From sequence record PZ386957.1: a DNA stretch of 64,000 bases; one strand, 5' to 3'. The stretch's first letter is position 1. Each line of letters starts with the position of its first letter. Source of the stretch: a phage. Positions 47,771 through 51,248 of this stretch are shown here, one piece after another. Below the pieces are notes generated by a model. It was not told the origin of the DNA. It made no database searches and saw nothing but the letters and a program-made list of their open reading frames with translations. Both the position numbers and the translations under genes were made by a program.

Positions 47771-47974
47771 TTAACCGTATACGCGAAAGTATTCTACGGA
47801 CCCGTCGCTATACTGTTTTACATTGAATGTATTCACACCATGATTATTGCTCATGATGACATATACACTACGACGTTCATCGCTAAACGGCATAACTGGT
47901 GCTGGTTCAATCTCAACATTAAAACCACGTTTAGCAAGTGCTTCGCCTAATTGCTTGATTTTATCGGTAAACAT
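47771..47974 (-). CDS. Hypothetical protein (67 aa)
   Basis: ORF; start overlaps pseT stop. Confidence 0.55.
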   Translation of the reverse strand: MFTDKIKQLGEALAKRGFNVEIEPAPVMPFSDERRSVYVIMSNNHGVNTFNVKQYSDGSVEYFRVYG

Positions 47975-48852
47975 TAAAAGTCTCCGTAGTTAACCTGAAA
48001 ACATTCTACACCGATTGCGCGGTACATGTCAACCACTTGATCACGGTCATCTACTGCCAAAACAACATGATAACGCGGTGCAATTTCAGAGAAGAAAATC
48101 TCTTTCTTAACTTCATGGTCCGGTCGGCGATCATTAGTTTCACGCTGAAAGTGATCACTAGGTTCGATCCCTTGTTCACGCAACCATTGCAGCGTATCTT
48201 CTTCGCAAATGTCCTCACGTCCAGAACATGTAATGATCCGATAACCATTATCACGATACAGTTTAAGCATTTCGATAACCTGCGGACGTGGTTTATCTTC
48301 TTTGACCTTTGTCCAGTCAAAAGGATGACGATCGCCCTTATCCGCTAATGTCCCATCAATATCAAAGATCACTGCTTTCGGCAGCATGGTATTCGGTTTG
48401 TATACTTCTTGACCCATATATTCCTGCATCAGATAAAATTGGTTGCGCAGATTGGAAAGCGGAATTGCTTTCTCTCCACGATAGAAATTACGTTTCTTTA
48501 GTGTCTCAAATGATTCATTGAATACTTGTTCAGTATACACTGCGTCAAATTCTTTTGCAAGTTCTTTATAGAACACTCGATGTTTTTCTTTCAGGTTAGT
48601 ATCAGAGATAATGATACTTAATCCGCGTGATAGAGTCTCGCGAGCAATCATTCTCTGTACAGACTCTACCAGCTTTTCTTTTTCTTTAGTGTATTTGTAT
48701 TTCAGAAGCGAATCAACACCAAACAACATAAGACGCAGGTCATCACGATTTACATTACGATAATTACTAAACCGTTTACACGTTTCCATCGCCCAGGTGG
48801 ATTTACCGGACCCAGAACAACCAACGGTTAAAATCACTTCACATTTCGACAT
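47974..48852 (-). CDS. pseT: Polynucleotide kinase / 3'-phosphatase
   Basis: 292 aa; P-loop GCSGSGKST, HAD motif IFDIDGTL, C-terminal VDDRDQVVDMYRAIGVECFQV collinear with T4 Pnk. Confidence 0.93.
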   Translation of the reverse strand: MSKCEVILTVGCSGSGKSTWAMETCKRFSNYRNVNRDDLRLMLFGVDSLLKYKYTKEKEKLVESVQRMIARETLSRGLSIIISDTNLKEKHRVFYKELAKEFDAVYTEQVFNESFETLKKRNFYRGEKAIPLSNLRNQFYLMQEYMGQEVYKPNTMLPKAVIFDIDGTLADKGDRHPFDWTKVKEDKPRPQVIEMLKLYRDNGYRIITCSGREDICEEDTLQWLREQGIEPSDHFQRETNDRRPDHEVKKEIFFSEIAPRYHVVLAVDDRDQVVDMYRAIGVECFQVNYGDF

Positions 48853-49319
48853 TATTTCTCCTTCGGTTTACACCGTTCCTCGTTAAGTTCTTTTCGATAA
48901 TAACACATGATCATCTTACTTTCAAGTGTATATCTCTTAATATCCGCTAGCCATATTCTGAACTTTTGGGAATCTTCCCAACTCATCATGACCATTGCTT
49001 TTCCTCGTATTGTATCCACTTTCAGATCAATGTCAACTGGTTCTACTGGTGCTGGTAATACCGGATGCATTGCCGGATCTGCTGTATAGTGAGGAAGTGA
49101 ACATGAAGACAGAAGAAGCACTAACGGAATAGCAAATGAATGGATGATAGCAATTTTAACTCCTTTCTGAGTATTGCGAAAAATGTAATACACTATCCGT
49201 AAAGCAACGACCATTAGGAATAACGCACATACCCCGACCCCCAATTTCTCCGCAAGGTTAAATCCTTGTATCTCGCTGAATGATGGAAGACCATTCCATA
49301 GATCACTAAGAAAGTTCAT
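48852..49319 (-). CDS. Membrane protein; candidate o-spanin-like lipoprotein
   Basis: 155 aa; two hydrophobic segments, internal LLLSSC lipobox-like site then Pro-rich stretch; AAGGAG RBS; position as T4 pseT.2. Confidence 0.45.
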   Translation of the reverse strand: MNFLSDLWNGLPSFSEIQGFNLAEKLGVGVCALFLMVVALRIVYYIFRNTQKGVKIAIIHSFAIPLVLLLSSCSLPHYTADPAMHPVLPAPVEPVDIDLKVDTIRGKAMVMMSWEDSQKFRIWLADIKRYTLESKMIMCYYRKELNEERCKPKEK

Positions 49320-49639
49320 TGTGTGATCTCCTTAATCTCTTTGGTAAATTCTTTAAATGATTCATTGAGTTTAGGTTCTACCAACTTAGGTTTCTTTGCG
49401 ACAATATCACCCCTTACAGCGTCTTTAATCGCCTGATTTTGTTCCGATACAAAATTACTTCTGATATCGTTTATTTCTTTCTGTAAGCCGTCTAAAACCT
49501 TTAATTTTTCATTAGTCTGTTTACGGTATTCTGTGAACTCCTGATTCAGTCGTTCTACCTCCTGTTTATTTTCCCACCACATATTTCCCATGAAGCCTAA
49601 AATCAAAGACACCAAAACCACATAAACGATTTTTATCAT
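49316..49639 (-). CDS. Candidate i-spanin (N-terminal TM + coiled coil)
   Basis: 107 aa; MIKIVYVVLVSLILGFMG then helical charged region; position as T4 pseT.3. Confidence 0.5.
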   Translation of the reverse strand: MIKIVYVVLVSLILGFMGNMWWENKQEVERLNQEFTEYRKQTNEKLKVLDGLQKEINDIRSNFVSEQNQAIKDAVRGDIVAKKPKLVEPKLNESFKEFTKEIKEITQ

Positions 49640-49659
49640 AGTACCCCCAACGACAAAAG

Positions 49660-49675
49660 GCGGGGCAAGCCCCGC
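49660..49675 (-). terminator. Terminator after rnlA
   Basis: GCGGGG-CTTG-CCCCGC followed by CTTTTGTCG on minus strand. Confidence 0.55.
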
Positions 49676-49681
49676 TTATTA

Positions 49682-50851
49682 TTACCAGTCAATCTTATCG
49701 GCCGGAATCAGTTTCTTGTAATTCCGTAGATAATAAGTTTTAAGTGAATCCAGCATACGGTCATAATCAAGACCATCAAAGGCAATCATCAGACACATGA
49801 AAATATATGCTTGTGCATCACCATGTTTACGTGATTCGACGGTAGCATTAGCCGCATATGTTTTACGGTCTTCCCCTGCATGTAATGCATGAAACTCTGT
49901 AGTTTCTTTAAATGCTTTACGCAGAATAGATCTAAATGCTTCCTCGAACAATTCAATTCGTTCCAGTGCTTCCGGTTCTCCTTCATATGCAGCACGAAGA
50001 TCATCGGTTTCGCTCTCTACGACATAATAGATCAGATTGTTGGGAAAAAGCGAAGTGCTCTTGATGTTATGCACACCAATATACCATTCACTCTTCACCT
50101 TGAACATTTGACCGTCTTTAGTGCGTGCAACAATTCCTTCTACACCTTCCGCTACCCGAACTTCATCAAGAATATGCGTAAACCGCGCTGAATCAACCTG
50201 TAACGCATTTACCAGATGAGGACGTAGGATTGCATCAGAGAACAGCATTTGATGCGGTACGTACTCCCCTGTGACGTTATGGCGTACATTCAGCAGTGTT
50301 AGCGACGGTTCATTGTATTCTACAACAATTCGGTTGCTTGGTGCTGTGTATTCAAAGTTGAAAGTATAATCAGACCCAATATCAGAGATCTTAGCGCGTA
50401 GTTCTGCATACTTCTCTGAATACAGAAGACCATTTGCTCGCTCTGCCTGGCTTGAGTATAAAGCCGCTTTAGATTTTAGCTGAACATACCCATTATCAAT
50501 GTATGTGCTAACTAGACTCCCGTCCATTTTGTCCATGACCATTTCAACATCTTCCGGCTTGAAATGTGATCGAGCATTTTCACCTAAATTAAAAAACTTC
50601 TCCATAGGACGAGATGCAATGCGGACAGGACGGTCTTTATCATCAATTTCAAACATGATCCCGCGACACTCTAAAGCATCTGGCTTATTCCACATTTCCG
50701 GCTTGCTCAAATAGAGATAGCTAAAAATACGCATACGCGATTGCATTGGCGTAATTTCATCTTTGTAATAGAACGTATCGGACCCGTCACACAGTGCCAT
50801 CAGATTTTTGAACAATGCTAAAACTTTTTTGTTGTTTTCTTTTGTTGACAT
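49682..50851 (-). CDS. rnlA: RNA ligase 1
   Basis: 389 aa; collinear with T4 Rnl1 (PDALECRGIMFE, VRIASRPMEKFFNL, DKMDGSLVSTY, EGIVA..KDG..FKxKSxWY, CGKDRKTYA). Confidence 0.9.
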   Translation of the reverse strand: MSTKENNKKVLALFKNLMALCDGSDTFYYKDEITPMQSRMRIFSYLYLSKPEMWNKPDALECRGIMFEIDDKDRPVRIASRPMEKFFNLGENARSHFKPEDVEMVMDKMDGSLVSTYIDNGYVQLKSKAALYSSQAERANGLLYSEKYAELRAKISDIGSDYTFNFEYTAPSNRIVVEYNEPSLTLLNVRHNVTGEYVPHQMLFSDAILRPHLVNALQVDSARFTHILDEVRVAEGVEGIVARTKDGQMFKVKSEWYIGVHNIKSTSLFPNNLIYYVVESETDDLRAAYEGEPEALERIELFEEAFRSILRKAFKETTEFHALHAGEDRKTYAANATVESRKHGDAQAYIFMCLMIAFDGLDYDRMLDSLKTYYLRNYKKLIPADKIDW

Positions 50852-51248
50852 AATTTGTGTTCCATTCTGGTTTAAATTTGGTGATCAAAACAGGTTCTTC
50901 GATATCGGCAGTGCTTATAATATCCTTACCTTCTGGATTCTCGATATACAACTCGAAACACTGGCGATAATAGAATGTTACTTGTTTCCCTTCCTCTAGC
51001 GCCTTATGAATATTCTTACTCTTGCGAGTGTCCGCTGTTGGTGTTTTTCTGTTAATGCTAGTTCGGTAATAGTTGATCCGCTTTCTGAGATTAACAGTCT
51101 GACCAATGTATACCAGTTCATCATCAACCACAATAGCATAAAGAACATTTAAACGGTTCTTCTGAGGCGGTAGAATCACATCACCATCTTTACACTCTAA
51201 ACATGAATATTTAACGAATCCATAGTTTTCTATTAGCTCATTAATCAT
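50787..51248 (-). CDS. GIY-YIG endonuclease (seg-like)
   Basis: 153 aa; VLYAIVVDDELVYIGQTVNLRKRINYY fits GIY-(10)-YIG...R; 3' end overlaps rnlA start by 65 nt. Confidence 0.7.
   Translation of the reverse strand: MINELIENYGFVKYSCLECKDGDVILPPQKNRLNVLYAIVVDDELVYIGQTVNLRKRINYYRTSINRKTPTADTRKSKNIHKALEEGKQVTFYYRQCFELYIENPEGKDIISTADIEEPVLITKFKPEWNTNYVNKRKQQKSFSIVQKSDGTV

Follow-up and report, generated by a model that had tools for sequence, protein, structure and literature searches.

A predicted T4-type spanin pair with a long two-helix leader on its outer subunit in a Krischvirus-like phage

We analysed a 64,000-nucleotide (nt) stretch of phage DNA (sequence record PZ386957.1; hereafter the window), in which two overlapping genes next to pseT, encoding proteins of 107 and 155 amino acids (aa), had been proposed from the sequence alone to be a possible spanin pair with an atypical outer component. 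Our comparisons support well the assignment of the two proteins to the two-component spanins of the T4 PseT.3/PseT.2 family, the 107-aa protein being the predicted inner-membrane subunit (i-spanin) and the 155-aa protein the predicted precursor of the outer-membrane subunit (o-spanin). They are new members, fairly divergent ones, of a spanin family that is known and already annotated, and not a new kind of system. The o-spanin precursor carries a leader of 72 residues before its lipobox cysteine, Cys73, composed of an acidic tail, a first transmembrane segment (TMD1), a basic loop and a second, signal-like segment (TMD2). As judged from sequence comparisons, this two-helix leader is a genuine lineage-specific variant. 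It is common to all RB49-like phages, in which the spanin identity is already annotated and the precursor architecture unexplained. We consider it probable that the outer subunit of this T4-type pair is made from the upstream ATG as a helical-hairpin precursor that would be lipidated by Lgt and cleaved by LspA, the leader being a maintained pro-region.

A spanin pair of the PseT.3/PseT.2 family

The 107-aa protein matched PHROG 739 ("Rz-like spanin") over residues 2-107 with an expectation value (E) of 1.2e-21, and BLASTP aligned it with T4 PseT.3 at 35% identity (E 3e-15). Identity to the PseT.3 proteins of Krischvirus, the genus of RB49, Phi1, JSE and ECD7, was 64-79%. The protein is devoid of cysteine, as is T4 PseT.3. 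The original prediction had read an N-terminal transmembrane segment and a coiled coil in it, and both were recovered here: hydropathy placed a membrane segment at residues 1-21, a heptad scan revealed a heptad pattern at about residues 29-63, and AlphaFold2 returned a long helix (2-75) and a second one (89-106), with a mean predicted local distance difference test score (pLDDT) of 84. The protein thus has the single N-terminal anchor and the helical coiled-coil domain of a T4 PseT.3-type i-spanin. A coiled coil at residues 25-56 is listed for the JSE and RB49 orthologues in the SpaninDB supplement (PMC6139136). When the i-spanin profile was run against the PDB, sub-threshold matches (best E 0.005) to the heptad-repeat regions of the paramyxovirus fusion glycoprotein F were obtained, which most likely reflect a common coiled-coil composition and not homology. 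No PDB relative of either the i-spanin or the o-spanin was found.

The 155-aa protein matched PHROG 812 (also "Rz-like spanin"; E 1.4e-30), and the match was restricted to residues 59-155. BLASTP aligned 95 residues of it with T4 PseT.2, at 43% identity (E 6e-24). This alignment takes in the lipobox cysteine as well as C139 and C150, equivalent to T4 C87 and C98. C73, C139 and C150 are all invariant, and C73 aligns with the lipobox cysteine of short-form homologues and of T4. The family PF26831 (Phage_T4_Spanin) is recorded on the near-identical metagenomic protein P0001. T4 PseT.3/PseT.2 complement a lambda Rz/Rz1 defect, and both C-terminal cysteines of the T4 o-spanin are essential (Kongari et al. 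2018, PMC6139136); the spanin reading is well supported because of this homology to experimentally tested proteins. The existing annotation of the orthologues agrees with it: in Krischvirus they are named pseT.3 and pseT.2, and the RefSeq label in Phi1, JSE and ECD7 is "Rz-like spanin".

The internal lipobox and the Pro-rich stretch behind it, both part of the original prediction, were also found. A PROSITE-type lipobox pattern ends at Cys73 (L-S-S-C73) with Ser at position +2, and the pattern holds in all nine lineages compared (+2 being Ser or Thr); the protein thus presents the motif [LVI][ASTVI][GAS]C followed by a non-Asp residue, as for outer-membrane sorting. Six prolines occur in the 24 residues starting at Cys73 (CSLPHYTADPAMHPVLPAPVEPVD). 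In the AlphaFold2 model, the mature part consists of a disordered Pro-rich linker (74-98), a beta-hairpin (99-112, strands 99-104 and 107-112) and a helix (114-141). Its sequence is 80-84% identical to that of Krischvirus isolates and the other lineages, and 95% identical to that of the near-identical lineage L009.

The location of the two genes pointed to the same family. The extent of both reading frames and their overlap, which is 4 nt (ATGA), were as originally predicted, and the i-spanin gene thus adjoins that of its cognate o-spanin. The pair lies between rnlA and pseT, whereas the T4 order is rnlA-alc-pseT.3-pseT.2-pseT.1-pseT. Since the two orders match except for alc and pseT.1, the argument from position made in the original prediction holds.

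The long leader and its distribution

The outer component is indeed atypical, in the way that the original prediction had described. Two hydrophobic segments are present (residues ~26-47 and 56-72, Kyte-Doolittle values 2.36 and 2.02), PHROG 812 covers the protein from residue 59 only, and the first ~55 residues are extra and occur in Krischvirus only. In a simple N-terminal signal, the cysteine lies within ~15-35 residues; here it is at position 73, and in isolates at 67-69. This position lowers the claim to an ordinary o-spanin precursor, not the homology of the mature part. The stretch from the basic loop through Cys73 resembles a normal lipoprotein signal peptide, to which the ~47 preceding residues are an addition. 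The charge pattern is the same in all nine lineages, with a net charge of -1 to -3 for the tail and +2 to +3 for the loop.

This architecture is shared by all Krischvirus PseT.2 proteins (150-151 aa, with a two-helix leader of 67-72 residues) and by their metagenomic relatives, and the 155-aa reading frame is open and continuous in 59 Krischvirus genomes. When 1.84 billion representative proteins were searched with a profile, 108 family clusters emerged. The leader was present only in the Krischvirus cluster and in a truncated fragment of it; in all other clusters, the match starts at protein residues ~2-42. Scanning IMG/VR and metagenomes for more lineages added six loci, L021 among them, all Phi1-type. 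The leader of the phage studied here is 4-5 residues longer than in isolates and related metagenomic lineages, and it lacks their internal Met; its identity to their leaders is only 28-39%. Leader identity in the comparison with the mature domain is 28-42%, as against 80-84%. The leader is thus evolving at a much higher rate than the mature domain, yet it remains constrained.

Searches with the leader alone gave no relative outside Krischvirus pseT.2. In tblastn searches of 50,697 phage genomes, it was found only in Krischvirus pseT.2, at one place per genome (no paralogue), apart from one spurious match. A leader-only profile search of 5.8 billion proteins returned nothing at E <= 1, with a sensitivity that was poor for this short hydrophobic query, as the source proteins themselves were missed. 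Comparison with PHROGs, Pfam and NCBIfam gave merely sub-threshold transmembrane noise. We considered whether the leader might be a holin, a pinholin or an antiholin, and discarded this idea on the grounds that no family in these three collections matched above noise and that no homologue occurred outside Krischvirus pseT.2.

The closest short-form relative, P0009 (from locus L014, ena:ERZ27235406:k119_4708, 2192-2808 plus flanks), is a 98-aa protein with 64% identity in the shared part and a plain 22-residue signal; its ribosome-binding site and its ATGA junction with the i-spanin gene are like those of the phage studied here. The N-terminus of P0009 bears a weak "W-x-G-L" resemblance to the leader, a hint that ~45 codons may have been inserted or deleted internally, but the similarity is too weak to rely on. 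The L014 contig itself, T4-like and metagenomic, is the nearest relative without the leader; it encodes a 107-aa i-spanin, and no pseT lies between its spanin genes and cd.2/cd.

The leader has left a trace in the literature. The SpaninDB supplement (Kongari et al., PMC6139136) gives PseT.2 of JSE, RB49 and Phi1 as 150 aa with a mature part of 83 residues, and its JSE entry has a "signal" of 67 residues, flagged "Too long signal sequence". The oddity is absent from the main text of the same article (PMC6139136), and no later paper on it was found in our literature search, in which articles on Krischvirus phages mentioned spanins just as annotations. With a flag in SpaninDB and no discussion in the papers found, the leader is thus on record but unexplained.

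Translation and proposed processing of the o-spanin precursor

Substitution patterns and start-site signals argue for a real long leader, translated and under selection, and against a mis-called start. Substitutions were counted over codons 2-40, all of them in front of the candidate internal starts (codons 41-46) from which a usable signal peptide would remain. Between the phage studied here and L009, 11 synonymous and 2 non-synonymous changes were found (P 5e-6), and between lineages L011 and L013, 14.5 and 2.5 (P 4e-7). Over codons 1-55, the ratio of non-synonymous to synonymous substitution rates (dN/dS) was 0.03-0.45 in the pairs with estimable dS. Nine leader residues (L11, P12, F20, N21, L22, G27, G29, M36 and F47) are invariant across lineages, with synonymous sites near saturation. 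Codons 2-40 are thus under selection, unlike untranslated or junk sequence. In the other frames and on the other strand, no stop-free stretch over the leader was common to the lineages; this ruled out an overlapping gene as the cause of the conservation. As for initiation, a 7-nt Shine-Dalgarno sequence (TAAGGAG or AAGGAGG, with a spacing of 7-8 nt) before the upstream ATG, which overlaps the i-spanin stop, was present in eight of the nine lineages and in the six further Phi1-type loci.

The arrangement that we favour would operate as follows, its topology, processing, sorting and leader role being inferred from sequence. The inner subunit would be the 107-aa protein, held by its N-terminal inner-membrane anchor and extending a long periplasmic helix. 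Translation of the o-spanin precursor, coupled to the end of the i-spanin gene, would begin at the upstream ATG. The precursor would then enter the inner membrane as a helical hairpin, with a periplasmic acidic tail, TMD1 running out-to-in, a cytoplasmic basic loop and TMD2 running in-to-out. This topology fits the positive-inside rule, given a tail and a loop that keep their opposite charges in every lineage, and the AlphaFold2 precursor model has a helix-turn-helix (22-49 and 52-73). The lipobox would come to lie at the periplasmic face, where the host Lgt would lipidate Cys73 and LspA would cut between Ser72 and Cys73. The resulting 83-residue lipoprotein, with Ser at +2, would be taken to the outer membrane by the Lol system and bind the C-terminus of the i-spanin; once the endolysin has removed the cell wall, the complex would disrupt or fuse both membranes. 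Membrane disruption or fusion by the spanin complex has been proposed for the lambda and T4 spanins. The leader would be a Krischvirus-specific, selectively maintained pro-region; its role may lie in the control of timing or assembly, or it may be an active peptide itself.

Several points weigh against this arrangement. That Lgt and LspA would accept a lipobox behind an extra transmembrane helix is an assumption, and our literature search returned no precedent for an internal lipobox or for a prolipoprotein behind an extra transmembrane helix or N-terminal extension. The PROSITE lipoprotein rule wants the cysteine within roughly the first 35 residues, and the full-length 155-aa protein fails it. 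The AlphaFold2 precursor model is of moderate confidence only (mean pLDDT 68.5). Each lineage has an in-frame candidate start shortly before the signal helix, at codons ~41-59 (ATG41/42 in most isolates, TTG in JSE, GTG43 in the phage studied here, ATG59 in L006). Finally, the SpaninDB curators doubted the annotated start and wrote of other long-leader o-spanins that they "might start at a downstream M" (PMC6139136).

These last two points would fit a functional o-spanin that arises from internal initiation, with an ordinary signal of ~27-31 residues and 40-45 upstream codons that are mis-annotated or tolerated. All other family members have such a short N-terminal signal, and Met41/42, where present, would give a textbook one (MFKKAHKNFQT-AIIHVFAVPIVFA-LSSC); in the phage studied here, the GTG at codon 43 would be available. 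However, the only recurrent internal candidate codon varies: most lineages have ATG, JSE has TTG, this phage and L009 have ATT, and L006 and L021 have ATA. None of the internal start candidates has a ribosome-binding site conserved in the lineages compared. The one conserved internal ATG, that of Met36, is inside TMD1 and is not preceded by a ribosome-binding site. We also considered a non-canonical start at ATT56, which in this phage has AAGGAG 5 nt upstream, and rejected it, since this motif is lost in L009 (AAA GGC GTT AAG) despite a 96% identical protein and is absent from Phi1-type genes. Internal initiation further leaves unexplained the purifying selection on codons 2-40 and the invariant LP and FNL motifs. 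With a strong, conserved ribosome-binding site at the upstream ATG and coupling to the i-spanin stop, ribosomes should read through the internal sites. We therefore regard internal initiation as an unlikely source of the functional protein; given the in-frame ATG, GTG or TTG near codons 41-59 in each lineage, it is possible as a minor route.

The selection on the leader might have another cause, namely that one gene gives two products: LspA cleavage would free, besides the o-spanin, an inner-membrane peptide of 72 residues and two helices. This peptide would have a function of its own, be it in lysis control or, for example, as a modulator of the holin, of the spanin complex or of superinfection, and the host lipoprotein peptidase would act as a polyprotein processor. 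The constraint on the leader, with its invariant residues amid nearly saturated synonymous sites, is far above what a simple membrane anchor needs, and the leader is limited to one genus and always fused in frame. In enterococci, the sex pheromones are functional peptides that originate from the signal peptides of lipoproteins. Yet the leader lacks homology to holins, antiholins or any other family and changes much faster than the mature domain, and the constraint could equally stem from the needs of insertion and processing. Such a second product is quite unlikely in our view. It is highly improbable that the protein stays uncleaved, as a two-pass inner-membrane protein with a periplasmic spanin domain, be it a tethered regulator or a spanin of different topology. 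An internal lipobox behind another helix is no proven Lgt/LspA substrate, and TMD1 is strongly hydrophobic, both of which would suit such a protein. But the lipobox cysteine and the preceding L-S-S never vary and coincide exactly, in the alignment, with the lipobox of more than 100 short-form homologues, and the highly conserved mature domain, including both T4-essential cysteines and the C-terminal helix, argues for the same outer-membrane role. Moreover, with both subunits in the inner membrane, the periplasm would not be bridged.

The spanin identity of the pair is ordinary, as these genes are already annotated in RB49-like phages; the architecture of the precursor has been a curation problem since at least 2018. 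If the cleaved hairpin precursor is correct, Lgt and LspA would process a lipobox that is not N-terminal, which bears on lipoprotein prediction rules requiring an N-terminal signal, and the pro-region would join the known ways of building or regulating spanins. If two products are made, this would be the first phage use of lipoprotein signal peptidase as a polyprotein-processing step, with Lgt and LspA able to act on a lipobox behind another transmembrane helix. Automated o-spanin finders that demand a cysteine within the first ~35-40 residues are expected to miss or truncate the pseT.2-type gene of this phage.

The locus and its counterparts in known systems

Coordinates of the features discussed are collected in Table 1. 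Five genes lie in a row on the minus strand: rnlA, the 107-aa and 155-aa open reading frames (ORFs), pseT, and then a cd.2-like ORF with dCMP deaminase. The DNA of the locus (47900-50900) is ~89% identical to that of RB49/Phi1/JSE-type phages, and the nearest relatives of the o-spanin come from metagenome assemblies only (P0001 with 96% and P0002 with 65% identity). Because of this distance to any cultured Krischvirus and the metagenomic origin of the closest o-spanins, the phage probably represents an uncultured Krischvirus-like lineage.

Table 1. Features of the spanin locus, in positions of the window
Feature	Position	Strand	Remarks
rnlA	49682-50851	-	upstream of the i-spanin gene
Terminator-like GC-rich hairpin and T-run	49660..49675	-	6 GC pairs, loop of 4, tail CTTTTGTCGT
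i-spanin gene, T4 pseT.3 orthologue	49316..49639	-	107 aa, ATG start; PHROG 739; BLASTP to T4 PseT.3
i-spanin N-terminal transmembrane segment, residues ~2-21	49577..49636	-	Kyte-Doolittle mean 2.0; start of AlphaFold2 helix 2-75 (pLDDT 84-97)
Shine-Dalgarno sequence TAAGGAG	49328..49334	-	spacing of 8 nt to the ATG of the 155-aa ORF; this ATG overlaps the i-spanin stop
o-spanin precursor gene, orthologue of T4 and Krischvirus pseT.2	48852..49319	-	155 aa plus stop, ATG start; PHROG 812; BLASTP
Leader part 1, acidic N-terminal tail, residues 1-26	49242..49319	-	invariant L11-P12 and F20-N21-L22; net charge -2
Leader part 2, extra transmembrane helix TMD1, residues 27-47	49179..49241	-	Kyte-Doolittle mean 2.36; AlphaFold2 helix 22-49 (pLDDT ~78-80); G27, G29, M36, F47 invariant
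Leader part 3, basic loop RNTQKGVK, residues 48-55	49155..49178	-	net charge +3; would be the n-region of the lipoprotein signal; AlphaFold2 helix break at 50-51
Leader part 4, signal-like helix TMD2, residues 56-72, ending in lipobox L-S-S-C73	49101..49154	-	PROSITE-type lipobox pattern; Kyte-Doolittle 2.02
Predicted mature o-spanin, Cys73-Lys155, 83 aa	48855..49103	-	Pro-rich linker, beta-hairpin, C-terminal helix; conserved Cys139 and Cys150
pseT polynucleotide kinase	47974-48852	-	start overlaps the stop of the 155-aa ORF

Stops and starts overlap from the i-spanin gene through the o-spanin gene and pseT to the cd.2-like gene (47771-49639, minus strand). After the ATGA junction within the pair, the TAA stop of the 155-aa ORF overlaps the pseT ATG by 1 nt (TAATG), and the pseT stop TGA (47976-47974) shares one base with the cd.2-like ATG at 47974. 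This chain suggests translational coupling across functionally unrelated genes. Upstream of the pair, a gap of 42 nt separates the rnlA stop from the i-spanin start, and the terminator-like hairpin falls within it. The upstream string given for Phi1 PseT.3 in SpaninDB (tccccgccttttgtcgttGGGGG) corresponds to the T-run and to the 3' half of the hairpin; these parts at least are therefore conserved in Phi1. No T4-type late promoter (TATAAATA) was found near the spanin pair.

Two further observations concern the neighbouring genes. In the region 49682-51248 (minus strand), the longest rnlA ORF (389 aa) overlaps by 65 nt an ORF of 153 aa upstream of it, the counterpart of Phi1 denA. The true start of rnlA is uncertain, since the annotated lengths in relatives differ (354, 372, 389 or 394 aa). 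In ECD7 (locus L002, NC_041936; 1-25), a second, shorter polynucleotide kinase (PNK) gene, pseT_2, is annotated a few kb upstream, and L009 has a 158-aa HAD_PNKP-only ORF in the same relative position. Together they suggest that the PNK phosphatase domain has been duplicated or split in this phage group.

Among known systems, the T1 spanin gp11 likewise has a lipobox and a transmembrane helix within one polypeptide. In gp11, however, the lipoprotein signal is N-terminal and the helix C-terminal, so that one molecule spans the periplasm, whereas here the extra helix precedes the lipobox and would be removed by cleavage. A unimolecular spanin of the gp11 type was ruled out accordingly: the 155-aa protein has no C-terminal hydrophobic segment, and its extra helix is N-terminal to the lipobox. 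With lambda Rz/Rz1, the pair would share the general design of a type II inner-membrane protein with a helical periplasmic domain and an outer-membrane lipoprotein. It shows no significant similarity to the lambda-type family, the sole other spanin PHROG match, phrog_214, being marginal (E 0.0014). The two genes are separate and not embedded as in lambda, the cysteine pattern is unlike, and the signal of lambda Rz1 is of the ordinary N-terminal lipoprotein type.

T4 PseT.3/PseT.2 are much closer. They are homologous to the pair described here, their genes overlap by 4 nt next to pseT, the i-spanin is free of cysteine, and the o-spanin has a lipobox cysteine and two C-terminal ones. T4 PseT.2, however, is a 99-aa protein with a 16-residue signal peptide, whereas Cys73 here lies behind an extra tail, helix and loop, and alc upstream and pseT.1 downstream of the T4 pair are both absent from the phage studied here. 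The likeness extends furthest with the Krischvirus PseT.3/PseT.2 pairs, which have the same gene order (rnlA, i-spanin, o-spanin, pseT, cd.2, cd), a 107-aa i-spanin and the two-helix leader of the o-spanin.

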